A DNA stretch of 32,000 nt from Idiomarina loihiensis L2TR (lineage in GTDB: Bacteria > Pseudomonadota > Gammaproteobacteria > Enterobacterales > Alteromonadaceae), in NCBI RefSeq assembly GCF_000008465.1, contig NC_006512.1:930001-962000 (forward strand). The letters are read 5' to 3'. A program made the position numbers and the translations under genes. This document shows positions 4,567-32,000 of this stretch, piece after piece; within the stretch, counting starts at the first letter, position 1, and the number at the start of each line of letters is the position of its first letter. The notes beneath the pieces are model-generated. The model had not been told where the DNA came from, ran no database searches, and saw only the letters and a program-made list of their open reading frames with translations.

Positions 4567-4580
4567 CAACAGGTCTCATT

Positions 4581-7483: not shown

Positions 7484-7505
7484 TTAGCAAAATAAGGGGA
7501 TTAAA

Positions 7506-9449: not shown

Positions 9450-9452
9450 TCC

Positions 9453-11672: not shown

Positions 11673-11689
11673 ATATAGTGGAGGTTAAC

Positions 11690-13339
11690 GTGGAACGCGA
11701 AAGCATGGAATTTGATGTCGTCATAGTTGGTGCAGGCCCGTCAGGGTTGGCAACCGCCTGTCGACTCGGCCAACTCGCACAGGAAAATGAGCAAGAACTC
11801 ATGATATGCGTAGTTGAGAAAGGCGCTGATATTGGCGCTCATATTTTATCCGGCGCGGTGTTCGAACCACGAGCCCTGAACGAACTTTTCCCTGACTGGA
11901 AAGATCGCGGCGCCCCGCTCAATACCGAAGTTACCGGCGATGATGTTTTATTGCTAAAAGACGAAAATAATCACAGTCGCCTGCCTGACTTTAGTGTGCC
12001 TAAAACCTTTCACAATAAAGGCAATTACATTGCCAGTATGGGTAACCTGTGTCGTTGGATGGCAGAACAAGCCGAACAACTGGGCATCGAAATATTTCCT
12101 GGTTTTGCGGCCTCTGAAATTCTGTATAACGACGATGGCAGCGTTGCGGGTATTCAAACCGGTGACATGGGTGTGGCTAAAGACGGTAGCGAAAAAGACG
12201 GCTATATGCCGGGAATGGAACTGCGTGCTAAATACACCTTATTCGCAGAAGGTTGTCGCGGTCATTTAGGCAAAGAGCTGATTAGCAGGTTTGAACTGGA
12301 TAAAGACAGCACCCCGCAACATTATGGTCTAGGCTTTAAAGAAATTTGGGATGTACCAGAGGACATGCACGAGCCCGGCAAAGTGGTTCACACCGCAGGC
12401 TGGCCGCTAACCGACAGTGATGCTACTGGCGGCGGTTATCTATATCATGCCGAAGACGGACAAGTGTACTTAGGCCTTATTGTTGATCTTAACTACGCTA
12501 ACCCTTACCTGAATCCATTTCAGGAGTTTCAGCGGTTCAAAACTCACCCGGCTATTAAGCAAATCATTGAAAATGGTAAGCGGGTGTCCTACGGCGCACG
12601 CGCTATTGCTAAAGGTGGCTATTATTCGTTACCGAAAATGACCTTCCCCGGAGGTTTGCTGGTTGGCTGTAACGCAGGCACCTTAAACTTTGCCAAGATC
12701 AAAGGAAACCATACCGCAATGAAGTCGGGTATGGTGGCCGCTGAATGTGTATTTGAACAGCTAAAAAATGGTAAAGCCAACGACGACATTACCAGCTACA
12801 AAGAGGCGTTTGAAAAGTCCTGGGTATTTGATGAATTGTATCGCTCACGCAATTTCGGCGGTGCTGTGCATAAATTGGGCACAATACTTGGCGGCGCTTA
12901 TAATATGGTCGATCAAAATTGGTTTGGTGGTAAATTACCCTTTAAATTTAAAGAGTGGACACCGGATTATAAAGCGACAGGTAAAGCCGAAAACTATACG
13001 GCAATCGACTATCCAAAAGCAGATAATAAACTGACATTTGATCGTCTGTCATCGGTATTTTTGTCCAATACCAATCACGCAGAAGATCAACCCTGCCATT
13101 TAAAGCTCAGTGACGCTAATATTCCATTAGAGGTCAATTTACCGAAGTATGCAGAGCCTGCGCAACGCTATTGCCCTGCCGGGGTTTATGAAGTGGTTGA
13201 AGAAGACGGCAAACAAGTTTTTCAAATTAATGCGCAAAACTGCATACACTGTAAAACTTGTGATATTAAAGATCCTAGCCAGAATATAACCTGGGTTGTG
13301 CCCGAAGGTGGCGGCGGACCTACCTACCCTAATATGTAA
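11690..13339 (+). CDS. electron-transfer flavoprotein-ubiquinone oxidoreductase (ETF-QO)
   Basis: FAD-binding DVVIVGAGPSGL near the N-terminus and a C-terminal 4Fe-4S cluster region (CPAGVYE...NCIHCKTCDIKDP). I prefer GTG 11690 because GGAGG at 11680-11684 gives correct spacing. The ORF-track start is GTG 11678. Confidence 0.9.
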   Translation: MERESMEFDVVIVGAGPSGLATACRLGQLAQENEQELMICVVEKGADIGAHILSGAVFEPRALNELFPDWKDRGAPLNTEVTGDDVLLLKDENNHSRLPDFSVPKTFHNKGNYIASMGNLCRWMAEQAEQLGIEIFPGFAASEILYNDDGSVAGIQTGDMGVAKDGSEKDGYMPGMELRAKYTLFAEGCRGHLGKELISRFELDKDSTPQHYGLGFKEIWDVPEDMHEPGKVVHTAGWPLTDSDATGGGYLYHAEDGQVYLGLIVDLNYANPYLNPFQEFQRFKTHPAIKQIIENGKRVSYGARAIAKGGYYSLPKMTFPGGLLVGCNAGTLNFAKIKGNHTAMKSGMVAAECVFEQLKNGKANDDITSYKEAFEKSWVFDELYRSRNFGGAVHKLGTILGGAYNMVDQNWFGGKLPFKFKEWTPDYKATGKAENYTAIDYPKADNKLTFDRLSSVFLSNTNHAEDQPCHLKLSDANIPLEVNLPKYAEPAQRYCPAGVYEVVEEDGKQVFQINAQNCIHCKTCDIKDPSQNITWVVPEGGGGPTYPNM

Positions 13340-13360
13340 ACACTTCGTAAAGTTAATAAC

Positions 13361-13404
13361 AAAAAACACCAAAGCATGTTAAATGTTTTGGTGTTTTTTC
13401 GTTT
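13361..13404 (+). terminator. rho-independent terminator after ETF-QO
   Basis: AAAAAACACCAAAGCAT (13361-13377) pairs with ATGTTTTGGTGTTTTTT (13383-13399) apart from one G-U wobble (G13374-T13386), around a 5-nt loop. A T-run follows. It begins 22 nt after the stop codon. Confidence 0.7.
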
Positions 13405-13592
13405 TAGGAACTAAAAATTATAAGTTTGTCGACTTATTAAGTCATAAATGTACTTTTAAACGAGTCATATAAAAATGAAGTGAAAAGAGAGCAGTATTGA
13501 TAGTAATTATAAGTAATTGTTAATAAGTAACGCTATACGGTGATTTTAATCCTCTTTCTCTATTTCTATGTACTTATTCAATAAAAAGAAGT

Positions 13593-13622
13593 TTCAACTT
13601 AAACTGTAATAACAGCTATAAT
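13593..13622 (+). promoter_or_regulatory. candidate sigma70 promoter for hns (TTCAAC ... TATAAT)
   Basis: TATAAT at 13617-13622 with a TTCAAC-like -35 at 13593-13598 (18-nt spacer), about 45 nt upstream of the hns ATG. Embedded in a very AT-rich region. Assigned by eye only. Confidence 0.35.
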
Positions 13623-13666
13623 GCAAACAAACCAATATTTAAGCAATCAAATAAGGTAAGCAAAAA

Positions 13667-14083
13667 ATGAGTGAATTCATTAACATTCTTCGTCACGAAC
13701 GCCGTTTAAAAGCAGCATTAAAAGAACTGGATTTAAACGAGCTGGAAAGTGTTAAATCTAAATTTGATTCGGTAATTTCTCAGCGTCGCGAAGAGGAAGC
13801 TGAAAAGCAACGCCAGAACGAAGCAAAGCAGAAAAAAATTGAAGAATTTAAAAGCGCGATGGCCGATGCAGGCATTGAATTGTCCGACATATTAGAGCAA
13901 GAGCTGGGTGGCGAACCTATCGTTAAAACCACTCGTAAAAAACGGGCACCTAAGCCTCCTAAATACGAATACACCGACGAAAATGGCGAAAAACAAACCT
14001 GGACTGGTCAGGGTCGCATGCCTAAAGCCATGAAAACAGCGGTCGATAATGGCAAATCATTAGAAGCATTTCTAATTAAGTAG
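13667..14083 (+). CDS. hns: H-NS family nucleoid-associated DNA-binding protein
   Basis: 138 aa. Charged coiled-coil N-terminal half and a C-terminal domain with the H-NS DNA-binding loop motif TWTGQGRMPKAM. Confidence 0.85.
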   Translation: MSEFINILRHERRLKAALKELDLNELESVKSKFDSVISQRREEEAEKQRQNEAKQKKIEEFKSAMADAGIELSDILEQELGGEPIVKTTRKKRAPKPPKYEYTDENGEKQTWTGQGRMPKAMKTAVDNGKSLEAFLIK

Positions 14084-14094
14084 CGTTAGTCAAA

Positions 14095-14136
14095 CGTAAT
14101 CTCTACCAATAATAAAGAGTAGAGATTACGCTTTTT
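14095..14136 (+). terminator. rho-independent terminator after hns
   Basis: CGTAATCTCTAC (14095-14106) pairs perfectly with GTAGAGATTACG (14119-14130), followed by CTTTTTG. Confidence 0.75.
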
Positions 14137-14196
14137 GTTGAACAATAGGCTCAGCTTGATTAGGCTATAGAAAATTCAAACTGGCAAGGATCGACA

Positions 14197-14565
14197 TTGC
14201 GCTATCGTTTCATAGCATTCGTATTAACGCCATTATTCGGCCTTTCTGCCTGTAGCATCTTACCTCAGATGTCAGGAGGCTTTAATCAGATCGACTCAGG
14301 TGATGTTGAAGTTTATCGCGGTGACAACAAGCCCTCGCGTGCATACGAGTTGATAAGTATTGTAAATGGTGAAAGCTGCCAGCGAAAATTTAGAGGCGCA
14401 GAAGCGTCGGCGAACGATGCCGTTGAAGCCCTGCGGGAAGACGCTGTCCGATTTAAAGCTCATGCCATTATCGGCGCTCAATGCTTTTCTTTTAAACCCG
14501 AAGCCGACTCCATCTGTTACAGTGAAGTCAGCTGCGTGGGCCGCGCTATTCAATGGCGTGATTAA
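14197..14565 (+). CDS. RcsF-like outer-membrane lipoprotein
   Basis: TTG start. Lipobox signal peptide (FGLSAC). The mature part carries four Cys in an RcsF-like arrangement (VNGESCQ ... GAQC ... DSIC ... SCVGRAIQW). The neighbourhood rcsF-trmO-proS matches E. coli synteny as I remember it. Confidence 0.55.
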   Translation: MRYRFIAFVLTPLFGLSACSILPQMSGGFNQIDSGDVEVYRGDNKPSRAYELISIVNGESCQRKFRGAEASANDAVEALREDAVRFKAHAIIGAQCFSFKPEADSICYSEVSCVGRAIQWRD

Positions 14566-15203
14566 TAACCTTGTTTCAAGGTAACGTCGCCAACGCCAAC
14601 TTCAACCTTAACTCTGACAGAGCCGTTACCCTGATAACTCGACTCAGATGTCACAATCATTCTGTCTTCCTGAGTGTTGCCGAAGTTCTTTAAACTGGTA
14701 TCGCCAACTCCTACCGATGCTTCTACTTGCTTGTAGTCGCCCTTGGCTAGATTCAAAGAGACATCACCAACACCTAAATCAACTTTTAAGTCGTTGAATG
14801 GTACGTCACCTTCAATCTGACCAACACCCAGGTCTATCTCAAGCAATCGGCTGCGCGGTACGGACACTATCCAATGTTGTGACATATCGTCATCGGGTGT
14901 TGCCGAAATTTCCAGGCGATTCCCGTCTCGTTCACCTTTTATAATAACTTTATCAAGCTCACCGCCACTGACGAACCAGCCGTCATCATCCGACTCTACA
15001 CGAAGCTCAATTCCGACCGTATCGCCTTCTGTTACACTTAACTCAACCGTTCCCACCGTTGCGTCTAAATGAATTTCTGTATCACTGCTAACAATATAAC
15101 TACTGGTTAACGTGCGTTCACTTTCGGCAGAAAACGCGGCTGTACTTACTGTAACTAAACCAATAAAACCTAAAGTTAAAGGCCAAATTTTGTGTTTCAT
15201 CAT
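14562..15203 (-). CDS. secreted beta-strand repeat protein (DUF4097/LiaG-like putative adhesin fold)
   Basis: Signal peptide MMKHKIWPLTLGFIGLVTVSTAAFSA. Four copies of a GVG(D/Q) motif (DLGVGQIEGDV, DLGVGDVSLNL, SVGVGDTSLKN, EVGVGDVTLKQ). I chose ATG 15203 over 15236 because it sits directly at the signal peptide. The family assignment is from motif memory only. Confidence 0.6.
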   Translation of the reverse strand: MMKHKIWPLTLGFIGLVTVSTAAFSAESERTLTSSYIVSSDTEIHLDATVGTVELSVTEGDTVGIELRVESDDDGWFVSGGELDKVIIKGERDGNRLEISATPDDDMSQHWIVSVPRSRLLEIDLGVGQIEGDVPFNDLKVDLGVGDVSLNLAKGDYKQVEASVGVGDTSLKNFGNTQEDRMIVTSESSYQGNGSVRVKVEVGVGDVTLKQGY

Positions 15204-15414
15204 TTTTCTTTTCCTATTGTTATTAAAACGATTCATGCTAACCCCTAAAGCACTAAAAGTTGCTTATGACTAGCTTTTGCAACGCCTGTGCCAAAAATAA
15301 AAGTCACATAAAATCAGTGAGTTAATCCATCTTTGATTTTCGAGGTTAGTGAATTAACAAACTATGTGGTCAAATTGGCTACCACAATTCTGGATATTCA
15401 CTAACGGAGGCAGA

Positions 15415-16122
15415 ATGAAAAGCCAGCAACAACTAACACCCATAGCTATCATTCGTACGCCTTTTCCTGAAAAGTTTAGTGTTCCCCGGCAACCCGGCCT
15501 GGCTCCCTCTGCATTGGCTCAGGTTGAGCTCGTTGGGAATTACCAGCATGCACAAGCCATAGAGGGTATAGAACAGTTCTCTCACCTTTGGCTAACCTTC
15601 GAGTTTCATCAGCACAGTTCGTGGCAGGAGCGCGTTCGCCCGCCCCGGCTTGGCGGTAATGAACAGCTAGGCGTCTTTGCCACCCGCTCCCCGTTCCGGC
15701 CGAATCAATTAGGCTTATCTGTGGTTGAGTTAGTTGCAGTAGAGACCGAGCCTAAGGTGGTGTTGACGGTTCGCGGAGCTGACTTGGTGGATAACACCCC
15801 TATTGTCGATATAAAACCTTATATTCCCTACGTCGACGCCATTAGTGACGCTCGTGCGGGATTTGCTCAGCACAAACCGGAAGAAAGCTTAGAGGTGATT
15901 TTTTTGGAAGCGGCGGAGTCGACTCTTATCAGGGAGTCAGAGCGCGCTCCTGAGCTTAAAACACTGATTACCGAGGTGCTCAGCCAGGACCCCAGACCCG
16001 CTTATCACAAGTTACAGGAAAACCAGAGAAATTACGGCACAGCGCTTTTGAACTACAATATTCGCTGGTATGTACAACAAAACACCGTTTTTGTTGAAGA
16101 AATCTCACTAAAACAGCTGTAA
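15415..16122 (+). CDS. trmO: tRNA (N6-threonylcarbamoyladenosine(37)-N6)-methyltransferase TrmO (YaeB/TsaA family)
   Basis: Matches the E. coli YaeB pattern (IRTPFPEKFSVPRQPGL, RPPRLGGN, GVFATRSPFRPN, DNTPIVDIKPY). ATG 15415 is preceded by GGAGG at 15406-15410. The ORF-track start at 15364 adds an implausible extension. Confidence 0.88.
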   Translation: MKSQQQLTPIAIIRTPFPEKFSVPRQPGLAPSALAQVELVGNYQHAQAIEGIEQFSHLWLTFEFHQHSSWQERVRPPRLGGNEQLGVFATRSPFRPNQLGLSVVELVAVETEPKVVLTVRGADLVDNTPIVDIKPYIPYVDAISDARAGFAQHKPEESLEVIFLEAAESTLIRESERAPELKTLITEVLSQDPRPAYHKLQENQRNYGTALLNYNIRWYVQQNTVFVEEISLKQL

Positions 16123-16200
16123 AAGGCTTTTGGGCGGCGTCAGACACTGCTAAACTTCGCTCTAATTTTTGACCACTATAACTTGCAGAGATGCCGGACT

Positions 16201-17904
16201 ATGCGCAGCAGCAAATATTTATTATCAACGCTTAAAGAGACACCTTCTGATGCTGAGATCGTGAGTCATCAGCTGATGTTGCGGGCAGGTATGATCCGTA
16301 AAGTCGCCGCTGGGTTGTATACCTGGACGCCAACCGGTTTGCGTGTACTGCGCAAAGTTGAAAACGTTGTGCGCGAGGAAATGGAAGCCATTAACGCATT
16401 GGAAATTTTAATGCCAATGGTACAACCCGCCGATCTTTGGCAGGAGTCAGGACGCTGGGATGACTACGGACCGGAATTACTGCGTATAAAAGACCGCAAC
16501 CAACGTGACTTTTTACTGGGGCCAACCCACGAAGAAATTATCAGTCAACTGGTACGTAAGGAAGTTAGCAGCTACAAACAACTGCCATTGACCTTGTTCC
16601 AAATCCAGACCAAATTCCGTGATGAAATACGCCCTCGTTTTGGCGTGATGCGTGCGCGCGAATTTCTGATGAAGGACGCCTACTCTTTCCATTTGACCGA
16701 CGAATCGCTGCAAAAAACATACGACGATATGTACAAGGCCTACTGTCGTATTTTCGAGCGTCTTGGTTTAGATTATCGTCCGGTTATAGCCGATACAGGC
16801 TCTATTGGCGGAAGCCACTCGCATGAGTTTCATGTGCTGGCAAGCTCCGGTGAGGACGCCATTGCATTTTCTGACTCTTCAGATTACGCCGCGAACGTGG
16901 AAATGGCAGAAGCTCTGGCTCCTGCTGGTGAGCGCCCTGCTCCTAATCAAAAAGTAGAAAAGCATGAAGTACAAGGCGACGAACTCGCTGCTGTACTACA
17001 GCCTTTGTCTGTAGAAAGCCAGCAAGCAACCAAGTCTTTTATTGTTAAAGCAGCGGACGACATTGATTCTGAATACGTTCAGCTAGTTCTTCGCGCTGAC
17101 CATGAACTGAACACAGTAAAAGCTGAGAAACTGGCTCAGGTTGCGGCTCCGCTGGAAATACTGACTGAAACAGAGAAAGCCACCGGCGTAGAAGCACCTT
17201 ACATTGGCGTTGTAAACGCGAAACTGCCTCTGTTAGTTGACAGCAGTGCGGCTCACCTCGCCGATTTTGCCTGTGGTGCAAATGAGAACGGCCAGTGGCT
17301 AACAGGTGTTAACTGGAAACGTGACACGGGTGATTTCAGCGTCGTGGATATTCGTAACGTTGTTGCCGGTGACCCGAGTCCTTGTGGTCAGGGCAAAGTA
17401 AAAATTGCTCGCGGTATTGAAGTTGGTCATATTTTCCAGCTGGGCAAAAAATACAGCGACGCTATGAAAGTTGGTGTGTTGTCTGAAAGCGGTAAACACG
17501 AAACTTTAACCATGGGCTGCTATGGAATAGGTGTTTCGCGCATAGTCGCTGCCGCCATAGAGCAAAATAACGACGAGCGCGGTATTTGCTGGCCGGAAGC
17601 TTTAGCGCCTTTCCAGGTTGTTATAGTGCCAATGAATATGCACAAGTCGGCACGGGTACAGGAAGCCGCTGAGAAGCTTTATACCGACTTAAAGGCTCAA
17701 GGTATTGATGTGCTGTTTGATGACCGTAAGGAACGCCCTGGGGTGATGTTTACCGACATGGAGCTCATAGGTATTCCTCATCAGGTTGTGGTTGGTGAGC
17801 GTAACCTTGATGAAAACCAGGTTGAGTACCAAAGTCGTAAAGGCGGAGAGAAGCAGAAAATCAATTTAGATGACTGCATTAGCTTCATACAGCAACAACT
17901 CTAA
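16201..17904 (+). CDS. proS: proline-tRNA ligase
   Basis: The N-terminus [34 protein letters not shown] is nearly identical to the start of E. coli ProS. A class II core plus an INS editing domain gives a 567-aa protein. Confidence 0.95.
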
Positions 17905-17918
17905 CTGACGTTATTAAT

Positions 17919-17959
17919 AAAAATGGCCTGATAGTTTTCGCTATCAGGCCATTTTTTTT
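17919..17959. terminator. bidirectional rho-independent terminator between convergent proS and gpt
   Basis: AAAAATGGCCTGATAG (17919-17934) pairs perfectly with CTATCAGGCCATTTTT (17941-17956) around loop TTTTCG. An A-run upstream and a T-run downstream allow termination in both directions. Confidence 0.8.
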
Positions 17960-17984
17960 GCCTTAATTTTTTAACGAGAGAGTC

Positions 17985-18470
17985 TTAAGACTCCTGACCC
18001 GCCAAAGGCTCAATGTAGTGTAAATGCATATCCCACGGAAAGTGGATCCAGGTATCCTGGGCTAAGTCAGCAACAAAATCGTCGACCATTTCCATACCAC
18101 TGGGTTTTGCGTAAACCGTCACAAACTTAGCTTTCGGCAAGCGTTCCCGCAAAAACTTCATCGTATTGCCGGTATCCACTAAGTCATCAACGACCAGAAA
18201 ACCTTCGCCGTCTTCCGTTGCCGTTACGTCTTTCATTACCTGCAAGTCGTCACGCTGTTCTGTGTGGTCATATGAGCTAACAGCAACACAGTCGACAACA
18301 CGAATATTAAGCTCGCGCGACACAATTGCCGCCGGAACCAAACCACCACGGCTAACCGCAATAATACCTTTATATTGCTCCGCCGGTAATTGCCGACGCG
18401 CTAGTTCACGCGTAGCGCGGTGCAACTCTTCCCATGATACAAAAAACTCGCGGTTTGAATGCCATCCCAT
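17985..18470 (-). CDS. gpt: xanthine-guanine phosphoribosyltransferase
   Basis: 161 aa. Collinear with E. coli Gpt (GIIAVSRGGLVPAAI, GFLVVDDLVDTGNT PRPP motif, DTWIHFPWD). Confidence 0.92.
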   Translation of the reverse strand: MGWHSNREFFVSWEELHRATRELARRQLPAEQYKGIIAVSRGGLVPAAIVSRELNIRVVDCVAVSSYDHTEQRDDLQVMKDVTATEDGEGFLVVDDLVDTGNTMKFLRERLPKAKFVTVYAKPSGMEMVDDFVADLAQDTWIHFPWDMHLHYIEPLAGQES

Positions 18471-18616
18471 AATTTCGTTACCCTAACCCGATAAATGTAA
18501 TAATAATGCGTAGCTGCTAAAATTTAGCATTGCGATTAAAAGACAGATATCTTACCTTAACCGCCGCAAAATGTGTTGTTCACTTTTTATTTTGTTAACA
18601 GGATACAGAACTTATC

Positions 18617-18937
18617 ATGCCAACCGTTTACTTTGTTGATGCCGATGGTAACCAGTTTGAAGCTACTGTCGATGCAGGAACCAACGTTATGGAAGCCGCT
18701 GTCGAAAACTTTATTGACGGCATTATTGGCGAGTGCGGCGGCGTTATGTCGTGCGCAACTTGCCATTGTTACATACCGCCAGAATGGCAAAGCAAAATTC
18801 CTGCCCCATCGGAGCAGGAAGAAGACATGATAGATATGGTTTTAGAGCCGCAGGACAATAGCCGCTTAAGCTGTCAGATAGAAATAACAGACGAATTAGA
18901 CGGTTTAGTTGTGCACATGCCGAAAACTCAGTTCTAA
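18617..18937 (+). CDS. 2Fe-2S ferredoxin (adrenodoxin/putidaredoxin type)
   Basis: 106 aa. Cluster ligand pattern CGGVMSCATCHC ... SRLSCQI (C-x5-C-x2-C ... C). Confidence 0.85.
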   Translation: MPTVYFVDADGNQFEATVDAGTNVMEAAVENFIDGIIGECGGVMSCATCHCYIPPEWQSKIPAPSEQEEDMIDMVLEPQDNSRLSCQIEITDELDGLVVHMPKTQF

Positions 18938-18949
18938 ATAAGCCTCAAA

Positions 18950-20092
18950 TTAATTTACGGCTGCCACCGGCATAAGAACTTCGTCGTGGTAGCCGGTAAT
19001 AACCCGAATAGTGCCTGAGAGTTCACGGTCTAGTTCCGAGTCGCCGGTATCAACGCGTAGAGGCTTGTTATTCAGTGCCTGCAACTTAGTTTTAGTGGCA
19101 ACCACCCAAATATTCTCTTTACCAATATGCCGAATAACCCGTGGACTTAATTGCTGATTTCCACGACCAAATAAATGCCCCTGCCCGCCAATTAAGGTTA
19201 TAACCAATTTAACGCTTCCAGCTTCGCACTGAGCCACTTCTTCGTATAAACGGCTTTCGGTTACGTCGCTGGCTAGCAGGTTATTCTGTTGGACTAAGTC
19301 GACACCGAGCAAAGTATTCTCGTGCCCCATGGACTGCATAATAGCTTCTACTGTAGAGCCAGACCCCATAACTAAAAGTTCGTCGTCAATGCGCTCTGTT
19401 ACTTCAGCAGCAATATCATCCAGTACCATCTCGTCGCTTTCTTTACCGCCCATTTTTACCGCCTGAACATATTCAAGTTCGGCCGGTACCGACATTTCAC
19501 CAAAACGTCGGGCTTTTACTGTGCCTTTTCTGAAAGCGTCTTCATCAATATCCATGACATCGGCGTTATGAATGCTGGATAACTCACCCTGCAGGATCTT
19601 CTCAATAACCCGCCCGGCACCAGTTGGACTAATAGCGTAAACGCCTGAATGAATTTTAACGCCAGCCGGTATACCCAAAACTAATTGTTGCTCAGGAACC
19701 ACCTGATAAATATCGCGCGCAGTGCCGTCACCGCCGGCGAATAAAAGAATATCGATGTTATGAGTCACAATTTCAGACACCGCTTTTTTGGTGTCTTCTG
19801 GTGAGGATGGAGTTTCAGCAGCTTTATAAACCGAGTCAAATGAAAAACCCAGAGCTTCGAGACTATTCGCTCCCATTTCATTGTCGGCAGTAACAAAATG
19901 AAGTAGCTGTTTGTATGGCTGCAAAAGTTCTAATGCGGTTTCAGCTCTTCTGGCGGCCTTTTTCTCAGCCCCGGCCGCTAATGCTTTTTCCCGAATGTCG
20001 GCGCCATCGCTTCCCTTTAAAGCTAAGGCGCCGCCAATACCTGCGTATGGGTTAATAATAAAACCTACGGTGAGTTTACTGCTTGTTTCCAT
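18950..20092 (-). CDS. ATP-NAD kinase family protein (long, about 380 aa form)
   Basis: GGDGT motif (LLFAGGDGTARDI) and overall NAD kinase/diacylglycerol kinase-like organisation. Its start lies 2 nt after the stop of the small lipoprotein gene upstream. Confidence 0.7.
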   Translation of the reverse strand: METSSKLTVGFIINPYAGIGGALALKGSDGADIREKALAAGAEKKAARRAETALELLQPYKQLLHFVTADNEMGANSLEALGFSFDSVYKAAETPSSPEDTKKAVSEIVTHNIDILLFAGGDGTARDIYQVVPEQQLVLGIPAGVKIHSGVYAISPTGAGRVIEKILQGELSSIHNADVMDIDEDAFRKGTVKARRFGEMSVPAELEYVQAVKMGGKESDEMVLDDIAAEVTERIDDELLVMGSGSTVEAIMQSMGHENTLLGVDLVQQNNLLASDVTESRLYEEVAQCEAGSVKLVITLIGGQGHLFGRGNQQLSPRVIRHIGKENIWVVATKTKLQALNNKPLRVDTGDSELDRELSGTIRVITGYHDEVLMPVAAVN

Positions 20093-24847: not shown

Positions 24848-25327
24848 ATGAGTAAAAAGAAACCACAACAATCATCCAATACCATAGCTCGTAATAAAAA
24901 AGCGCGGCATGAATACTTCCTTGAAGACAAGTTCGAGGCAGGTGTTAGTTTGCAAGGCTGGGAAATTAAGAGCATACGGGCTGGCAAGGTCAACATTAGC
25001 GACAGCTACGTCATTATTAAAAATGGCGAGGCTTACCTTTTGGGTGCCGAAATTCAGCCTCTTAACCAAGCCTCAAGCCATGTTTATTGCGAGCCAGACC
25101 GCAGCCGTAAACTGCTGCTGAAGCGCCGCGAGCTGGATAAGCTTATTGGCGCCTCAGAGCGTGAGGGCTATTCCATTGTTGCCACAACCATATACTGGAA
25201 AGGCCCATGGGCAAAACTGGAAATATTTTTAGCCCAGGGTAAAAAGTCACACGATAAGCGCGACACCATTAAAGAGCGCGACTGGCAACGCCAGAAGGCT
25301 CGGATAATGAAGCATTCGGTGCGTTAG
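24848..25327 (+). CDS. smpB: SsrA-binding protein SmpB
   Basis: 159 aa. Collinear with E. coli SmpB, including the C-terminal tail ([21 protein letters not shown]). Confidence 0.95.
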
Positions 25328-25781
25328 TTGGAACTTCAGGTGCGTCATTCAGGCGTGCCTGTTGAAGTTTCAATAGTTGATTGAGCAACCTTTCGAGCTC
25401 TCCGTCAAAGGTATCCAGCTCAACCCGGGCATCCATAAGAATGTTGGTGGTCTGACGTAAATTAAGTAATGCCAGATTGAACCACACATTCCGATCAGAA
25501 GAATTAAGTCTCAGGGATTGCCCGTAAGCTGATTCGCTAGCTTTAAAACGATACTGTCTAAAGTAAATGTTACCGAGTAGCGCCCAACTTTTATCCGTCC
25601 CTAACCCCTTACGGTGTAACCATTGCAAATGCTGTTCCGCTGATAAGAGATCGCCATTTTTATACCAGTTAATGGCGGTATCCAGGCTCTGTTCCCTAAC
25701 TTGCCTCTCTTCTACTGTCGCGCTACAGCCTTGATTAATTAAGCTCAATAGCAATACAGCAATCAAAATGCTTGTTTTCAT
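25269..25781 (-). CDS. TPR-repeat lipoprotein (TadD-like), last gene of the Tad-like module
   Basis: Lipoprotein signal peptide [22 protein letters not shown]-like helical repeats ([37 protein letters not shown]). Its last 19 sense codons plus stop lie antisense to the smpB 3' end. Confidence 0.7.
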
Positions 25782-26127
25782 TTAGCTCTCCATGCTTGTT
25801 TATAAACTTTAATCTCTTTCCAACCCATTTTTCTAAAGGCCAAAAGTTTCCAGCAGCCATTTCAATTAATCCGTGAGCTCCTTTAAAGCGAGCGATTTCA
25901 TTGGGACAAATGAATCGACGAACCTCTATAATTTGATTTCCTTTGTCGAGGGCCACAACATCAATTGGCTCTTTCATTCCCCAAGTGTGTATTGACCTAC
26001 AAAATGGAAACCAAAAGGCCATCTCTGGCGTTGGTTGCTGCTCGCCCAGCATGCCAATTAACCTTTGATGAAACTTTTTCATGGCCTTCACCTTGGGCCA
26101 TGCAATAATTTCTTTCTCACTCGTCAT
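25735..26127 (-). CDS. DUF192 (COG1430) domain protein
   Basis: The core FCRSIHTWGMKEPIDVVALDKGNQIIEV resembles the DUF192 signature (HT-x-GM ... D-hydrophobic-hydrophobic-F/L-D). I chose ATG 26127, which forms an ATGA overlap with the tadC stop and follows AAGGAGGG. The ORF-track start at 26199 lies inside tadC. Confidence 0.6.
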   Translation of the reverse strand: MTSEKEIIAWPKVKAMKKFHQRLIGMLGEQQPTPEMAFWFPFCRSIHTWGMKEPIDVVALDKGNQIIEVRRFICPNEIARFKGAHGLIEMAAGNFWPLEKWVGKRLKFINKHGELNENKHFDCCIAIELN

Positions 26128-26912
26128 CCAAACCCTCCTTGGCTTATTTGAACAATAACTGGCCCGAGAATAACCAGAAAGTTTACGGGAAAAAAACAAG
26201 TTACTAGTGGAAAAAGGAGCTTTACGGGCGCTTCTTGCGCTCTCTTCTCCGCTGAGTTTAGTAGATCCTGTCTTAATTGGTTAGCATAAAACCTTAACGA
26301 CTTGGTTAGGCTAGTTCCTTGCTGATATCCTTTTATTAGCATCGAACTCCACTCATGGATCTGCTTCGCATCATACCGTTCAGATAGTTCATACATTGAC
26401 TGAGCAAAACTTGTCCCTCGTCGCAACCGACTGAGCATCGATGTGATCTCCCGCGCAAGCAGAAGATCGCTGCACGACGCAGATACCTTTTCTAAAGCGG
26501 AAATTAACGGAATACCTGAAGCAATCATCATAGAAATTAGATCACAAAAATCAGGAAGTTGGCGAACTATCGCTTTATTATTTTTTAGAGCTAACTGTCT
26601 TCTCTTATTTATTACCATTAGTAGTAAGAGAACATAAGCGATACTTAAAAGCCAAACCCCGGAAAGCAGAGAAATAGAGACAGATACACATGCCATAAAA
26701 ACCCAGAAGAAAAATGATCGCGCGGCTCCTTTTAGAAAATCTACTTCCAGATAACGAACAGTCCATCTTTTGACATTTTCCGGTAAAACCGACCACATTT
26801 TTGACACTGCATAATCAAGCTTTTGCCCAAGCCCCAGTATTTGCCAGAACGCGAGGACTAAAAGCGAAAAGCTAAGAGTAGCGAGAAATGTTAAGACAGC
26901 AACTATAATCAT
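26124..26912 (-). CDS. tadC: Tad/Flp pilus platform protein TadC-like (T2SS F-domain)
   Basis: 262 aa polytopic membrane protein with a cytoplasmic T2SSF-type helical domain (LPDFCDLISMMIASGIPLISALEKV ... LFPLVTCFFPVNFLVILGPV). Second of two such genes after the ATPase. Confidence 0.8.
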   Translation of the reverse strand: MIIVAVLTFLATLSFSLLVLAFWQILGLGQKLDYAVSKMWSVLPENVKRWTVRYLEVDFLKGAARSFFFWVFMACVSVSISLLSGVWLLSIAYVLLLLMVINKRRQLALKNNKAIVRQLPDFCDLISMMIASGIPLISALEKVSASCSDLLLAREITSMLSRLRRGTSFAQSMYELSERYDAKQIHEWSSMLIKGYQQGTSLTKSLRFYANQLRQDLLNSAEKRAQEAPVKLLFPLVTCFFPVNFLVILGPVIVQISQGGFG

Positions 26913-27760
26913 TTTTCATCTTCCGGATGCATAATTCGCTTAACCATCCATCCACCAATAATCATCAATATAAGAGCCACTATAAGCATAAAAATACCAA
27001 CCCGTGACTCAGTGAAAAGCGCTGTATGTTCTGATTTCATCCAACTTAAAAGAAAATACAATCCAACCGGCATCATAACGAGAATTTTAGCCTGCATTCT
27101 GGCTTGTGAAGTCAGCGTTATCTGCCGCTCTTTAATGTGCTGCTGTTGTTGGAGGTTGTCAGCCAACCTTAGAAATAAATCCGACTGTTGCCCTCCACTT
27201 TTCAAACCTAGAACTAAAGATTGAACCACGAGTTTAATGGAGAAAACAGGAACTCTCCGCTGCCAGTCTTCCAGGCAATCTGTTAAGGGTTTACCCACTT
27301 TTTCCTGTCTCAATAGCTCGTCCACCTCTTGTCCTAAAGGAGCTAATAACGTTCCTTTTAAATTCTTCAAAGCTGCTCCGACACTCGTACCACTTCTTAA
27401 CTGGTTACTAAGCCCGATCAACATACCGGGCAACTGTTTTTCAATTTTTATGTAACGTTGCTTTTTAAGATGACGATAAACAAATGGAGGAGCCAACAAA
27501 GTCAGAATAAACGTCGCTACTGCCCAGGTTCTATTAACATAAAACCATACGATTAGAGGCGATAAGAGTGTGACTACCAGATAACTTCTGACCAAAATTG
27601 TTACCGGCATTCTCAAGAAAAATTCTTCTAAAGAGCGTACCGTTGATAGCGTCAGTTTGTCTTCAAGTTGTCGATATCGCTTTGGTGTTAAATGCGAAAA
27701 GATCCAGAGCCAGCAAAGTCCGCTGCATACGATTAAGAGGGCTAATCCGAAGATGAACAT
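26909..27760 (-). CDS. tadB: Tad/Flp pilus platform protein TadB-like (T2SS F-domain)
   Basis: 283 aa. T2SSF-type domain (LPGMLIGLSNQLRSGTSVGAALKNL ... ARMQAKILVMMPVGLYFLL). 4-nt overlap with tadC. Confidence 0.8.
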   Translation of the reverse strand: MFIFGLALLIVCSGLCWLWIFSHLTPKRYRQLEDKLTLSTVRSLEEFFLRMPVTILVRSYLVVTLLSPLIVWFYVNRTWAVATFILTLLAPPFVYRHLKKQRYIKIEKQLPGMLIGLSNQLRSGTSVGAALKNLKGTLLAPLGQEVDELLRQEKVGKPLTDCLEDWQRRVPVFSIKLVVQSLVLGLKSGGQQSDLFLRLADNLQQQQHIKERQITLTSQARMQAKILVMMPVGLYFLLSWMKSEHTALFTESRVGIFMLIVALILMIIGGWMVKRIMHPEDEK

Positions 27761-28965
27761 AATCCATCTCCCATAAGTGACTCCCAGACCTCTTGACGAA
27801 TATCGTCCCCTTGCTCATCTGCGAACTTACATAATGTCATACTACTTATTAATGATTGAGTCGTATTGCTTCTTTCAAATAGTGGTGACAGCTGTAAAAC
27901 ATTATCGTCTATCCCCGTAACTTCACTGATACTAAGCACGGCTCTTCGGCCATCAGAAAGACGCGCTATCTGAACCACAATATTAACAGCACTGGCTATT
28001 TGCTGTCGTAACGCAGAAATCGGAAGCTCTATTCCACCCATCAAGACCATAATTTCCAAACGTCTTAAAGCATCGCGAGCGCTGTTAGCATGAACGGTAC
28101 TCAAAGATCCCGCATGACCCGTGTTCATAGCCTGTAACATGTCTAAAGCTTCCGACCCACGGCACTCACCTACAATAAGTCGATCAGGACGCATTCGCAG
28201 TGCATTGATAACGAGTTCACGAATATTTATAGCCCCTGTTCCCTCCTGATTTTTAGGTCTGGCCTCAAGACTTATCAGATTATTGTGATCTAATTGCAGT
28301 TCAGCCGCGTCTTCGATACTTATAATTCTTTCACCTTCAGGAATTTCCTGAGATAGAATATTTAATAAGGTTGTTTTACCCGTTCCTGTTCCACCAGAAA
28401 CAATAATATTTTGGCGACAACGAACAGCAAGCCTTAAGAATTCAGCAGCTTGCTCCGTTAATGAGCCACTATCTACCAAGTCCTCGATCGTTAGCGATTT
28501 CTTGGTGAACTTTCGAATAGTGAGACACGACCCTTTGGTTGCTAAAGGAGCTAGAACAGCGTTTACGCGAGAACCGTCTGGTAGACGAGCATCGACCATG
28601 GGGGATGCATCATCAACGTGACGGCCTAAAGGCAGAACAATCTTATCGATGGTTCGCCGCAGGGAAACCTCGTTACTGAATTGTTCATCCGCTTTCTTCA
28701 ACTTACCTGAGCGCTCAACATAGATCTGATCATAACTATTGACCATGATTTCAGTTACTGAATCATCTTCTAAAAGACCCTCAATAGGCCCCAGGCCAAT
28801 GACTTCAGCTACTGCATCTGCTATATCTTTTCCAGACTCGCCTGTAGTTTCCTTTAAATAGGATTCAGCATAGCGCCTCAACTCACATTCACTCATAGAC
28901 TCAAAACGCGGATCTCTGGTATCTAAATGCTCTTTGAGGCTGTTAATTAAATTAACTGATATCAT
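27742..28965 (-). CDS. tadA: CpaF/TadA-family secretion ATPase
   Basis: 407 aa. Walker A GGTGTGKTT, Asp box ISIEDAAEL, Walker B RPDRLIVGECRG, His box GHAGSLSTVHAN. Confidence 0.92.
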   Translation of the reverse strand: MISVNLINSLKEHLDTRDPRFESMSECELRRYAESYLKETTGESGKDIADAVAEVIGLGPIEGLLEDDSVTEIMVNSYDQIYVERSGKLKKADEQFSNEVSLRRTIDKIVLPLGRHVDDASPMVDARLPDGSRVNAVLAPLATKGSCLTIRKFTKKSLTIEDLVDSGSLTEQAAEFLRLAVRCRQNIIVSGGTGTGKTTLLNILSQEIPEGERIISIEDAAELQLDHNNLISLEARPKNQEGTGAINIRELVINALRMRPDRLIVGECRGSEALDMLQAMNTGHAGSLSTVHANSARDALRRLEIMVLMGGIELPISALRQQIASAVNIVVQIARLSDGRRAVLSISEVTGIDDNVLQLSPLFERSNTTQSLISSMTLCKFADEQGDDIRQEVWESLMGDGLCSSSD

Positions 28966-30176
28966 CGAAATGTCTCCCTTAGCTGTAAAATGGAGTCCTT
29001 CTGGTACCAGTCGTGTTTTTGCGCTAACCGTTTTTGCTTATCATGCAACCGCTCTTTAGCCGTATCCATACGCTCAGCCGTAACCATAATAATTAGTTCC
29101 GTGGTTTGCTCTCTGTTTTGCTGACTTCTGAAAGCATTTTCCAGAATCGGTAATGAACCTAAACCCGGTATCTGGTCATCCTGAGCTGACTCATCTGTAC
29201 TTAAAAGACCAGACAAAACCAGTGTGTCTCCATCATTTGAGAGAAACACCGATTCCGTACGACGACTAAGTATGCCCGGTACACCTGAAACCGAAACAGC
29301 AGGATCAATATTGCTTAATTCGGCATGAAGCTGCGTTTTTATTCTGTTGTCATCTAAAACCACCGGCTGAATAACAAGCCTTATACCGTATTCGCGGAAA
29401 GTAACGTCCTGCATACCCTGCGCGACAACTTGAGGAATAGGCAGTTCTCCTCCCGCAAGAAACGTCGCCTTCTCACCGCTTTGGGTAGATAAAACAGGAT
29501 TTGCCAATAGTTTGGCGAGACCGCGTCGCTGCATAAGCATCAGTTGGGAATTAATTTCGGCGTCCCACTCGAACAAACCTGATAAAGAGCTCGAAAATGT
29601 AGGGCCGCTCGTTGTCCCTTGCCATCTAATTCCAAGGTCTTCGAGATACTGGCGCTTGGTTTCCAGAATATTGACTCGCAAAGTCAACATAGGAGGCTCT
29701 TCCTGAAAAGATTCAGTTAAATTTAAAATCTCTTCGTGATTCTCGGAAATTTTCTCGAGTTCTTCGTAATTTCTTTTGGATACCTTGCCCGATAAAACTG
29801 TAAGCCCTGACTTTTCTGTTTTGTTAAGACTCTGTTCTGCTTCAGATATAGCTTCTAAACGCCCCTCCAGGGAGAGTTTCAGGCTAGCCGTTACCATAAT
29901 CTTTAACTCTTTTAATACCTCTTCGGATTTGAGCCAGATATCAGCTTTGCCAACTCCCACCCCTCTTAGAATTGCCCTGCTATTATCAAGCACATGAACA
30001 TCTACAACACTCTCATCACTGATAAGAATATCGCTTCCAGGTTCTATACTGATAATTCGAGTCTCACCTTCTTCAAGATAGTAGGAGCTATGATTAACCT
30101 CGGCCCGAGCACTAAGGGCGACGAAAAATAACAAAGTCACGACTAAGTAATGTTTGAACTTTACTGAACCTTCCAT
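28962..30176 (-). CDS. rcpA: RcpA/CpaC-family secretin
   Basis: 404 aa. Signal peptide (LLFFVALSARAEV), an N-terminal pilus-formation/BON-like domain (RIISIEPGSDILISDESVVDVHVL) and a C-terminal secretin domain (GLAKLLANPVLSTQSGEKATFLAGGELPIP ... PGLGSLPILENAFR). Confidence 0.9.
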   Translation of the reverse strand: MEGSVKFKHYLVVTLLFFVALSARAEVNHSSYYLEEGETRIISIEPGSDILISDESVVDVHVLDNSRAILRGVGVGKADIWLKSEEVLKELKIMVTASLKLSLEGRLEAISEAEQSLNKTEKSGLTVLSGKVSKRNYEELEKISENHEEILNLTESFQEEPPMLTLRVNILETKRQYLEDLGIRWQGTTSGPTFSSSLSGLFEWDAEINSQLMLMQRRGLAKLLANPVLSTQSGEKATFLAGGELPIPQVVAQGMQDVTFREYGIRLVIQPVVLDDNRIKTQLHAELSNIDPAVSVSGVPGILSRRTESVFLSNDGDTLVLSGLLSTDESAQDDQIPGLGSLPILENAFRSQQNREQTTELIIMVTAERMDTAKERLHDKQKRLAQKHDWYQKDSILQLRETFR

Positions 30177-30868
30177 GGTTGCACCTTGCTTTGTTTAGAA
30201 TCTTGATGCCAAATACTTGCTTGCTCTAAATGACGGCCTCTCGCCCAGACCAACATTGGACTTCCAATAGCTCTTGTAAATGCGGCTACCTTCTCGGGCT
30301 CCACCAACAATGTCAGCGAATATGAACCATATCCCTCCTGCAAGCCGTGGATATCGAAAACCTCAATTTCTTCAAATGAAACGTATTGTCTTGAGTTTTC
30401 AAAAGACTCCCCGACAAATACAATATCGACCAGATCTCCGACTTTCAGCAGCGCATTGTGGTGGCCTAAATTGTCCGTAGTGACCGTAATAGCGTAGTAA
30501 CCGTTAGGCAGAACTTCCGATAAACCATTGTTCTGATTATTCGATAGAACGCGTTCAGAAACCGGTTCACCAGATTTAACAGAACTTCGCAGTTTCCTAC
30601 CGATAATCAAATTAGCGGCGCTCTCCAAATACCAATGCTCATTGATAAGTTCGTGCGGATATTTTCGAACCAAGAGGTCGCTTACTTCTAAAATATCCCC
30701 GACATTAAGATCTTTGGAAAAAACAACAACACTATCAGCATTTCCTGACGCCTCTTGAAGTCGTCGGGAAGTTTCTTGCTGTAGATATTGATTAATTAGA
30801 AAAATCGTCACCATCGAAATTATTGAGCTAAAAATCACGGCAAAAATCCATTTCGCCTTTTTTTTCAT
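30161..30868 (-). CDS. rcpC: CpaB/RcpC-family Flp pilus assembly protein (SAF domain)
   Basis: N-terminal TM anchor (WIFAVIFSSIISMVTIFLI) followed by a SAF-like segment (VVVFSKDLNVGDILEVSDLLVRKYP). ATG 30868 is preceded by GGAGGAGGA and overlaps the pilin stop (ATGA). The ORF-track start is 30904. Confidence 0.8.
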   Translation of the reverse strand: MKKKAKWIFAVIFSSIISMVTIFLINQYLQQETSRRLQEASGNADSVVVFSKDLNVGDILEVSDLLVRKYPHELINEHWYLESAANLIIGRKLRSSVKSGEPVSERVLSNNQNNGLSEVLPNGYYAITVTTDNLGHHNALLKVGDLVDIVFVGESFENSRQYVSFEEIEVFDIHGLQEGYGSYSLTLLVEPEKVAAFTRAIGSPMLVWARGRHLEQASIWHQDSKQSKVQPWKVQ

Positions 30869-31056
30869 GATCCTCCTCCTGGTATTAGTACTAAATAGCG
30901 CCAAATAAAATAATAAAACTCTTTCGCCTCACGACCCACTTCAATTAAGTAGTCAATGAGTGAAAGTTGCTCTTCAACAACAAATAAAATGGTCATTATT
31001 AAGAGAGAGAGCAATAACCACTCTGTCGATGCCTGGCCATTTTGTTGTCTTCTCAT
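30865..31056 (-). CDS. divergent Flp-type (class III signal peptide-like) prepilin, 63 aa
   Basis: MRRQQNG|QASTEWLLLSLLIMTILFVV... A short basic leader, then Gly, then Glu at +5 and an aromatic at +6, then a hydrophobic helix. This is the G/xxxxE[YF] arrangement of Flp/TadE-type prepilins. Size and position (directly upstream of cpaB) fit a major pilin. Confidence 0.6.
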   Translation of the reverse strand: MRRQQNGQASTEWLLLSLLIMTILFVVEEQLSLIDYLIEVGREAKEFYYFIWRYLVLIPGGGS

Positions 31057-31559
31057 AGAACATGAACCAAAATCACATACTCACCTTGCTCGGAGAACAT
31101 TAGGCTTCCCATATCTTCTTTAAAGATCCAAAAGTCATGGGGTTTCTCAATCGATTGAAAAGAATCGATTTTTTGGCTGTAAGTTAATTTTAATACGTTT
31201 TTTATATCTTTGAATTTGAATGTCGATAAATAAACCCAGACCTCTTTTCCATTTTTCCGGTTTTTTGAAATGGCATTAAAAGGCCCGTCAAGCTTAGGCT
31301 TTTCCATATACGGAAGAATTATTTTACTTAAAATCCATGAACCATCATTTCCTTTGAAGAAAGTCCAGTTGTCTTCTCCAATTGGACAGATCCAAAAATC
31401 TCCATGAGGGGCTGGACAGTAGGAATAGAAATCTTCAATAACACTCCAGTCTGGAACATTAGGACTTTGTAAAAAATAAGCAGTAGCCGTCGCATTCTGA
31501 GAAATTGGCATTTCAGACCATTCCCATTTATCAAACCCTGCAGGAATATCAGCAATCAT
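31053..31559 (-). CDS. hypothetical cytoplasmic Trp-rich protein, paralog 1 (168 aa)
   Basis: Long ORF with AAGGTG 5 nt upstream of the ATG. No signal peptide or TM segment. Its stop overlaps the pilin start (CTATGAGA: ATG/TGA). The C-terminal half is clearly homologous to the next ORF upstream. Confidence 0.65.
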   Translation of the reverse strand: MIADIPAGFDKWEWSEMPISQNATATAYFLQSPNVPDWSVIEDFYSYCPAPHGDFWICPIGEDNWTFFKGNDGSWILSKIILPYMEKPKLDGPFNAISKNRKNGKEVWVYLSTFKFKDIKNVLKLTYSQKIDSFQSIEKPHDFWIFKEDMGSLMFSEQGEYVILVHVL

Positions 31560-31666
31560 ATACGCACCTTAATTAAAGCTTTACTAAGAATTTGTTACAG
31601 CTAAACCCACAGATTTTTAGAAAAGTAATTTTCCATTTTTATGTAGATAAATCTTTAGTATTCCAG

Positions 31667-32000
31667 TCATAAATAATGTGCCAAAATCACATATTCACCT
31701 TGTTCAGAAAAAACTACGCGCCCCATATCTTCTTTTAATATCCAAACATCATTTTCTTTCTCAATAGATTGAAAAGAGTCTACTTTTTGGCTGTAATAAG
31801 ACATCATTGCCGTTTGCAATGGTTTAAGCGGATATCTAGCTAAATAAATCCATATCTTTTCTCCATTACTTTCATATCCTGAAATTGGAGTAATGGGTCC
31901 CTTTAAAGATTCTTCATGTCCTGGAGACTTAGTCAGTGGCATTAGTATCCATTGTCCGTTTTCTCCCTCAAACAACGTCCATTCAGTATCTTCTATGGGA
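31667..32000 (-). CDS. hypothetical cytoplasmic protein, paralog 2 (5' end beyond the right edge)
   Basis: The frame stays open upstream of the ORF-track TTG start to the window end (my translation ...PIEDTEWTLFEGENGQWIL), and that extension still aligns with paralog 1 (CPIGEDNWTFFKGNDGSWIL). Shared blocks are YSQK[IV]DSFQSIEK and FSEQGEYVIL. Confidence 0.6.
   Translation of the reverse strand, partial: PIEDTEWTLFEGENGQWILMPLTKSPGHEESLKGPITPISGYESNGEKIWIYLARYPLKPLQTAMMSYYSQKVDSFQSIEKENDVWILKEDMGRVVFSEQGEYVILAHYL

Follow-up and report, generated by a model that had tools for sequence, protein, structure and literature searches.

TadZ is treated as a core component of tight adherence (Tad) systems, where it recruits and positions the machine. 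Canonical Tad loci are known from Aggregatibacter (flp-tadV-rcpCAB-tadZABCDEFG), Caulobacter (pilA-cpaA-F) and P. aeruginosa (flp-rcp-tad), and TadZ is listed among the Tad components by Denise et al. (PMC6668835). The system described here is a Flp pilus operon located at the end of a stretch of 32,000 nucleotides from Idiomarina loihiensis L2TR (contig NC_006512.1, positions 930,001 to 962,000), referred to below as the window. Judged from its sequence, the locus is a Tad/type IVc system by six defining features, among them a CpaF-type ATPase, a platform split into TadB and TadC, a Flp pilin with a class III signal, an RcpA/CpaC secretin together with RcpC/CpaB, and TadE/F/G-like pilins, but it fails two others, TadZ/CpaE beside the ATPase and a dedicated TadV/CpaA peptidase in the locus. 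The region is probably a working, reduced member of a distinct, TadZ-independent subtype of the Flp/Tad (type IVc) pilus.

The canonical loci share with the Idiomarina locus the CpaF/TadA ATPase, the split TadB/TadC platform, RcpC/CpaB, an RcpA/CpaC secretin that carries a pil_N domain, a short Flp cut at a G↓xxxxEY site (↓, predicted cleavage), TadG- and TadE/F-like pilins and a probable TPR lipoprotein in the tadD slot, as well as the order rcpC-rcpA-tadA-tadB-tadC-tadD. In contrast, tadZ/cpaE, tadV/cpaA and rcpB are missing in Idiomarina, the minor pilin genes lie at the 5' end beside flp, an extra small Flp gene precedes cpaB, and a DUF192 gene is inserted between tadC and tadD. Set against the typical Flp length, a further difference is the Idiomarina Flp itself, with 79 amino acids (aa) after the predicted cleavage and a hydrophilic tail of about 40 aa.

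The Tad-like contact-killing system Kil of Myxococcus xanthus (PMC8460266, PMC12075869) also has a single ATPase, no TadZ and a short secretin. Its major Flp gene likewise stands apart from the short adapter Flps and the TadE/F/G-like tip pilins, and some of its pilins are probably cut by a peptidase encoded elsewhere. Kil differs in its FHA-KilF, many FHA proteins, its own KilA peptidase, several tip clusters and, as a partner, a type III secretion system that lacks the needle, and it is reported to be devoid of TadD and TadG, while in the Idiomarina locus ±10 kb Pfam annotation gave neither the FHA proteins nor KilA. Loci that are Kil-like by their content (FHA-CpaF plus an A24 peptidase; L028, L030, L052 and L073), from Lentisphaerae, Myxococcota and Citreicoccus, form a separate clade in the neighbour-joining (NJ) tree described below. 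The Idiomarina locus is thus best regarded as resembling Kil yet not as a member of it.

With the type II secretion system (T2SS), the locus shares a secretin, an ATPase of the PilB/GspE superfamily, a GspF-fold platform and pseudopilins, and its relatives carry adjacent candidate Sec cargo genes. It differs from the T2SS in that the ATPase is of the CpaF type (the GspE model TIGR02533 gives 50 bits against a cut-off of 630), the platform is encoded by two genes, the pilins are of the Flp type, and the locus is without GspC, GspL and GspM.

Operon organisation and core machine

The pilus genes form the distal part of a 13-gene operon of I. loihiensis (IL0899-IL0910), whose proteins were identified in strain L2TR as AAV81739 to AAV81750 by exact sequence look-up. 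The identical ATPase sequence is found on 18 public contigs, including the Idiomarina loihiensis chromosome CP005964, and most of the operon genes already carry public annotations as Flp pilus assembly proteins. From first to last, the genes are flp (92 aa)-tadG-like (407)-pseudopilin (178)-p166-p168-small Flp (63)-cpaB-cpaC-cpaF-tadB-tadC-DUF192-TPR lipoprotein, and all genes overlap or abut with the sole exception of a 107-nt gap between p166 and p168.

An earlier interpretation made from the window alone (the sequence-only reading) had described eight translationally coupled minus-strand genes, and ORFs were found exactly there. Its seven junction overlaps were also reproduced on recomputation: 4 nt (ATGA) between the 63-aa gene and cpaB, 16 nt between cpaB and the secretin gene, 4 nt between the secretin and ATPase genes, 19 nt between the ATPase gene and tadB, 4 nt between tadB and tadC, 4 nt (ATGA) between tadC and the DUF192 gene, and 47 nt between the DUF192 and TPR genes. 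That reading began the string at 31056, whereas the p168 ORF overlaps the start of the 63-aa gene by ATGA and the operon extends past the window end at 32000. Beyond this base, the same operon contains the rest of p166 and the genes for a pseudopilin of 178 aa, a TadG-like protein of 407 aa and a Flp of 92 aa (4772-7299 in the copy L003).

The core machine, encoded like the rest of the operon on the minus strand, was assigned from Pfam and NCBIfam matches. A CpaF/TadA-type secretion ATPase of 407 aa (27742-28965) matches PF00437 (T2SSE) with E=7.6e-61 and has an intact Walker A motif (GGTGTGKTT). Among NCBIfam models, it fits the TadA-family TIGR03819 best (335 bits, under the cut-off of 373), and public sources place it in the CpaF family. 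The platform consists of two inner-membrane proteins with one T2SSF domain (PF00482) each, a TadB type of 283 aa (26909-27760, E=3.7e-11) and a TadC type of 262 aa (26124-26912, E=6.9e-18). The CpaC/RcpA-type secretin (28962-30176, 404 aa) has a signal peptide and an N-terminal pil_N domain (PF00263, E=1.5e-34; PF13629, T2SS-T3SS_pil_N, E=1.3e-10). Among solved structures, its best relatives include 8jvb and RcpA of P. aeruginosa (8odn), by which it is classed as Tad-type. CpaB/RcpC, a predicted periplasmic alignment protein of 235 aa (30161-30868) when read from the ATG after AGGAGG, has an N-terminal transmembrane segment and SAF and RcpC matches, with 68.1 bits for TIGR03177 against a cut-off of 71. 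The Shine-Dalgarno-like AGGAGG precedes the chosen starts of both cpaB and the DUF192 gene. The domains that the sequence-only reading had expected (T2SSE, two T2SSF, Secretin, SAF/RcpC and DUF192) were all matched in Pfam; the TPR matches are below their cut-offs.

The secretin gene runs 4 nt into the ATPase gene, which leaves no room for tadZ between them. When the 32-kb window was translated in all six frames, hidden Markov models (HMMs) built from two seeds each gave no TadZ-like ORF and no A24-peptidase-like ORF, even with the threshold at E<=10. In addition, Pfam annotation of five independent copies of the locus showed no CbiA, ParA or AAA_31 protein and no PF01478 within ±10 kb. The absence of TadZ/CpaE, for which no space was seen, and of a TadV/CpaA peptidase at the locus, both claimed from the window alone, was therefore confirmed. 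All four pilin-like proteins retain the G↓xxxxE site, which suggests cleavage by a peptidase whose gene lies elsewhere in the genome; the Kil papers call prepilin peptidases promiscuous (PMC8460266, PMC12075869).

The TadZ-less CpaF clade

The locus was compared with others in a survey in which one genome per GTDB species was scanned with a CpaF profile and 80 loci were kept. In the NJ tree of the CpaF cores, 27 loci form one clade in which the secretin gene abuts cpaF, neither TadZ nor an A24 peptidase is present and the Flp is of the GQGMTEY type, and all loci of this kind lie inside it. The clade includes Idiomarina (L003, L018) and Pseudidiomarina (L007), while TadZ-containing, Kil-like and Bdellovibrio-like loci form other clades. 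The grouping of the ATPase with TadZ-less, DUF192-containing neighbourhoods, for which the sequence-only reading had proposed to look, was found in this NJ tree with about 26 such loci, all proteobacterial. A CpaF plasmid protein search was non-specific, with at least 5000 records, and gave the canonical comparator L016 and the Moraxella locus L017.

The relatives show the order flp (about 90-100 aa)-tadG-like-pseudopilin-signal-peptide protein-small Flp-rcpC-secretin-cpaF-tadB-tadC-DUF192-(TPR)-tadE. It repeats the Idiomarina order and was seen in Massilia, Solimonas, the metagenome contig L011, Shewanella, Stutzerimonas and a Moraxella bovis plasmid, and neither tadZ nor A24 was found in these six. 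The Idiomarina order also occurs in Pseudidiomarina, Thauera, Piscinibacter, Castellaniella, Oleiphilus, Chromatiales and Acidithiobacillus. The absence of TadZ and tadV is best read as ancestral to a large clade with a kept gene order, and not as a recent loss.

The closest CpaF proteins outside Idiomarina and Pseudidiomarina have 550-630 aa with an N-terminal FHA domain, and nearly all clade members carry such an FHA-fused CpaF, an architecture named 'class III' and said to be mostly betaproteobacterial (PMC12019362). With the FHA-CpaF loci of Beta- and Gammaproteobacteria, such as those of Massilia, Solimonas, Shewanella, Stutzerimonas and the Moraxella bovis plasmid, the Idiomarina locus shares the CpaF clade, the order from flp to DUF192/TPR, the absence of tadZ and tadV, and the Flp N-terminus GQGMTEYIIIVALIAV. 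In contrast to them, the CpaF of Idiomarinaceae is without the FHA-plus-linker N-terminus of about 150-200 aa: no FHA domain was found on it by Pfam, and its alignment to the relatives begins at about their residue 150-260. The signal-peptide protein of 225-260 aa in those loci is replaced by the signal-less p166/p168, and the Idiomarina locus has neither the terminal tadE nor a downstream Rhs or large lipoprotein gene. From these comparisons, the CpaF of Idiomarinaceae appears to have lost its FHA domain. In the relatives, the FHA domain fused to CpaF may be a recruitment or regulatory stand-in for TadZ; Idiomarinaceae have neither TadZ nor FHA on CpaF.

In the Bdellovibrio-like loci L031, L061, L062, L065, L072, L076 and L091, the CpaF ORF has 700-750 aa and also matches the TadZ HMM, which may reflect a fused TadZ-like or receiver-like domain, or a P-loop cross-match.

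A large clade with conserved order and without TadZ or a peptidase of its own would mean that another solution exists, and FHA on CpaF may be that solution in most members. The Idiomarina window itself gives a more modest result, an annotated Flp pilus operon of an unusual subtype. In the searchable literature, which omits most subscription journals, there was no experimental study of the TadZ-less subtype, and no paper on DUF192 in Tad loci, Rhs genes beside Tad loci or Idiomarina Tad.

Pilins and accessory proteins

The first operon gene encodes the 92-aa Flp (L003 4772-5050, outside the window), which starts ...RSRG↓QGMTEYIIIVALIAVAAIGVY and carries the class III signal RG↓QGMTEY. It is the best conserved operon protein, with 89% identity to I. 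zobellii and a dN/dS (nonsynonymous to synonymous divergence) of 0.09, and it is named Flp pilin by NCBI, IMG and UniRef, with 'Flp/Fap pilin homolog' among the public names. It is taken as the putative fibre subunit. Also outside the window, the 407-aa TadG-like protein matches PF13400 (TadE/G-like N-terminus) above the cut-off with E=2e-8, and the 178-aa pseudopilin-like protein starts with MRFKCKG↓QATVEV followed by a hydrophobic helix and weakly matches the same-position pseudopilin of L011 (E=2.5e-4). 'Tad domain-containing protein' is another public name within the operon.

Inside the window, the 63-aa Flp-like minor pilin (30865-31056) has the motif NG↓QASTEW followed by a hydrophobic helix and, although without a Pfam match, has homologues in the relatives. 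Its counterparts of 61-71 aa carry GQ(S/A)xxEY motifs (for example, in L008, L009, L011, L012, L017 and L018), and a small Flp gene is found directly upstream of rcpC/cpaB in every well-covered relative. Adapter Flp minor pilins (KilK, KilO) and TadE/F/G tip complexes are described for Kil (PMC12075869), and by analogy the role of a minor or adapter Flp is more likely for the 63-aa protein than that of the fibre subunit.

The sequence-only reading had taken the 63-aa ORF as the pilin and the minor pilins as missing. Neither point was upheld, given the 92-aa Flp upstream, the position of the 63-aa counterparts beside rcpC throughout the clade, and the TadG-like and pseudopilin-like proteins encoded upstream in the same operon. 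Pseudopilin genes just upstream of the window speak against that reading, while no tadZ and no tadV are found among these genes. Of the distinct minimal machine that it proposed, a TadZ-independent subtype remains, but the locus is not pilin-poor and its DUF192 and TPR genes are ordinary.

Two paralogues, 46% identical, lie between the pseudopilin and the small Flp: p168 (31053-31559, 168 aa, no signal peptide, function unassigned) and the 166-aa p166, of which the 3' two-thirds are at 31667-32000 and the rest continues beyond the window. This tandem pair sits in the slot held by the signal-peptide protein in relatives; homology with the proteins in that slot was rejected (hhalign probability 0.1%). 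No Pfam, NCBIfam or PHROG family was matched by p166 and p168, nor by the 63-aa and 178-aa proteins. For p168, only 17 representatives occur among 1.84 billion proteins, and its AlphaFold2 model is too low in confidence for a fold search (predicted local distance difference test, pLDDT, 52.8).

The DUF192 protein (25735-26127, 130 aa, no signal peptide) matches PF02643 with E=4.1e-07 and 30.5 bits against a cut-off of 27. It appears to be cytoplasmic, since an N-terminal hydrophobic segment is missing from 91 of 92 relatives, in line with the signal-peptide-less protein noted before. A sequence search of the PDB gave nothing for DUF192, and its AlphaFold2 model (pLDDT 87) resembles no structures other than 3pjy and 3m7a, two DUF192 crystal structures without an assigned function. 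A word-index search found it in Idiomarina only, whereas a profile search gave 2653 relatives.

Among four loci of DUF192 relatives that were examined, two (Shewanella and Stutzerimonas) belong to the same subtype. In a third, from Syntrophomonadaceae, DUF192 comes after tadC in a locus with flp, A24, tadE, rcpC and a TadZ-like ATPase, and in the fourth, from Bdellovibrionales, it follows a T2SSF gene beside FHA proteins. Survey loci that contain TadZ and have DUF192 after tadC number at least 15 and come from Firmicutes, Chloroflexota, Acidobacteriota and Actinomycetota, and DUF192 stands directly after tadC in canonical loci with both TadZ and A24 (L014, L024, L066, L069, L070, L080 and L086). 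From its occurrence after tadC in TadZ-containing loci, DUF192 is therefore best described as a common Tad accessory that would substitute for neither TadZ nor TadV. The idea that the module ends in DUF192 instead of the missing genes was thus not retained, and DUF192 as the missing peptidase or a TadZ substitute was rejected on its co-occurrence with both in canonical loci. As a recurrent cytoplasmic partner of tadC across phyla, it could give a function to a long-standing DUF.

In Massilia (L008 13629-14828), DUF192 is fused N-terminally to a TadE-type pseudopilin, before an ...AQSG↓IAMVEF cleavage site, and a second DUF192-pseudopilin fusion is found in the protein P0209. In the Massilia fusion, DUF192 would be an unusually large cytoplasmic leader of about 130 aa.

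The last operon gene (25269-25781) encodes a TPR protein of 170 aa with a signal sequence, an N-terminal hydrophobic segment and a following Cys (LINQGC); its TPR_2 and TPR_11 matches are below the cut-off. Orthologues follow DUF192 in L007, L011, L012, L013, L018, L022, L033 and L035, usually with tadE next, and tadC-(DUF192)-TPR-tadE of the relatives reproduces the canonical order tadC-tadD-tadE. TadD is a TPR lipoprotein pilotin (PMC10499894). The TPR protein is a probable lipoprotein, called TadD-like by position and features only because similarity to solved TadD was not detectable.

Assembly scheme, alternatives and flanking genes

In the proposed scheme, CpaF docked on the TadB/TadC platform would polymerise the 92-aa Flp, and the assembly would be primed by a tip complex in which the TadG-like protein joins the 178-aa pseudopilin and the 63-aa adapter Flp. 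The fibre would pass through the CpaB ring and then the CpaC secretin, which the TadD-like TPR lipoprotein would pilot to the outer membrane. The peptidase acting on the pilins could be PilD or an orphan TadV encoded elsewhere, and DUF192 may act as a cytoplasmic accessory at the platform or at the prepilin N-terminus. The product would probably be a fibre for adhesion or surface colonisation.

Several Idiomarina species and strains carry all 13 ORFs intact, with the overlapping start/stop junctions preserved. Against I. zobellii, dN in the operon is 0.11-0.57 while dS is saturated, and the operon proteins other than the 92-aa Flp show 41-74% identity, compared with 91% for smpB. The operon appears to be under purifying selection, and its genes look functional. 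The GC content is 0.41-0.45 over the pilus genes (25000-31000) and 0.36 in 31000-32000, with 0.47-0.53 in the flanking housekeeping genes; low GC and divergence together would fit fast evolution or an acquisition long ago, and not an island of recent origin.

Several observations weigh against a working pilus of this subtype. Idiomarina is without the FHA domain and the terminal tadE of most relatives, so the machine could be impaired, and no peptidase gene for these pilins was found within ±10 kb. The 92-aa Flp matches Pfam Flp_Fap only below the cut-off (E=0.0016); the TPR protein, without a sequence match to solved TadD, is short (170 aa) and has an atypical lipobox (N-Q-G-C); p166 and p168 are not accounted for in the scheme. 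In addition, the survey annotation was based on HMMs from 2-7 seeds and on maximal ORFs, and the NJ tree of CpaF cores is without bootstrap.

The main alternative, considered unlikely, is a T2SS-like export in which a short Flp pseudopilus pushes Sec-exported periplasmic cargo through the secretin or shows it at the fibre tip, making the system a toxin or adhesin exporter. In five loci (Massilia L008, Solimonas L009, Moraxella bovis plasmid L017, Thauera L020 and Piscinibacter L023), a co-oriented Rhs toxin gene lies directly downstream, a TIG-domain lipoprotein of 1350-1380 aa comes after the locus in L011 and Shewanella L012, and delivery of effectors by Tad tips in a T2SS-like manner has been proposed in the Kil literature (PMC12075869). 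However, the Idiomarina operon ends at smpB with no cargo gene there, and p166/p168 are not classical T2SS cargo because they have no signal peptide. Many clade members are also without an obvious large downstream gene, and the Rhs-linked loci lie in one subclade and may represent a single event.

In a broader form, which is about as doubtful, the whole clade would be more than an adhesion pilus: a system derived from Tad and independent of TadZ that exports or delivers large Sec-exported proteins (Rhs, the Shewanella TIG lipoprotein), with DUF192 as a new component acting on prepilin leaders or the platform and Idiomarina as a stripped version whose cargo is elsewhere or lost. Rhs genes behind a TadZ-less Tad in five genera could give orphan Rhs toxins a secretion route and, if the export reading is true, a previously unrecognised one outside the type VI secretion system.

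The Rhs genes are located at 14859-20057 (L008), 9939-13052 (L009), 13277-17827 (L017), about 5807-11360 (L020) and about 14285-19840 (L023). They contain DUF6531/RHS/YD-shell domains, with a Tle1-like C-terminus in Massilia, and their N-terminal regions are alike: GAGNP(I/V)N.I.GNKYQREVD.PALPGVLGLEIVRHYNS. The N-termini inspected, those of L008 and L009, both show Sec signal peptides, and small genes after Rhs are taken as putative immunity-like genes. The slot after tadE is occupied in L011 (14980-19119) and Shewanella maritima L012 (11561-15622) by a TIG/IPT protein of 1353-1379 aa, with a lipoprotein-type N-terminus in the L011 copy, which may be cargo or a tip adhesin. A protein of 138-159 aa follows, its signal peptide being read in L011 only.

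It is less probable still that the operon is a decaying remnant with which nothing is assembled after the loss of TadZ, TadV, FHA and tadE. Four components of canonical systems or close relatives are indeed missing, the GC content of the pilus genes is below that of the flanks, and the proteins have evolved faster than smpB relative to I. zobellii. Yet the 13 intact ORFs, the kept junctions, a dN far below the saturated dS, and the intact prepilin cleavage and ATPase motifs argue against decay, and the absence of tadZ and tadV is ancestral to the clade. A Flp pilus for DNA uptake (competence), as in Micrococcus luteus or Liberibacter, is very improbable: Tad systems are reported to serve in transformation (PMC4322843, PMC8513845) and the machinery as such reveals little of its function, but no comEA, comEC or dprA was found in the operon or within ±10 kb.

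Around the pilus operon, the downstream neighbour is the convergent smpB (24848-25327, plus strand), which shares 59 nt at its 3' end with the TPR gene. A terminator-like hairpin with a T-run (25246-25264, minus strand; 7-bp stem with 4 GC pairs and a TTTTT tail; a pattern match only) lies 5 nt after the TPR gene stop, within the 3' end of smpB; in promoter and terminator scans of the region, the number of sites was not above the shuffle expectation. In many Gammaproteobacteria, ssrA adjoins smpB. ARAGORN and Rfam gave no tmRNA, tRNA or Rfam family anywhere in the 32-kb window, hence no ssrA near smpB there. A tmRNA-linked genomic island beside smpB was rejected, given that the window is free of tmRNA and tRNA and that Pfam annotation showed no integrase within ±10 kb; I. 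zobellii has the same smpB flank and Pseudidiomarina the same queC/queE flank, which also counts against it.

On the other side, a ParE/antitoxin pair and then queE and queC lie upstream of flp. Most I. loihiensis copies have the ParE toxin and Unstab_antitox genes between queE and flp (L003 4082-4617); for L001 the antitoxin gene alone was called, and Pseudidiomarina (L007) is without both.

The left part of the window (909-13339) contains a leucine/isovalerate catabolic cluster with an acyl-CoA dehydrogenase, both methylcrotonyl-CoA carboxylase subunits, an enoyl-CoA hydratase, an HMG-CoA lyase and an AMP-forming ligase. After the catabolic cluster come a GGDEF-EAL protein (9453-11672) and an ETF-ubiquinone oxidoreductase. 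No link between this part and the pilus operon was seen. At 13001-14083, the GC content drops to 0.367 around an H-NS family gene (13667-14083; Histone_HNS_N, Histone_HNS).

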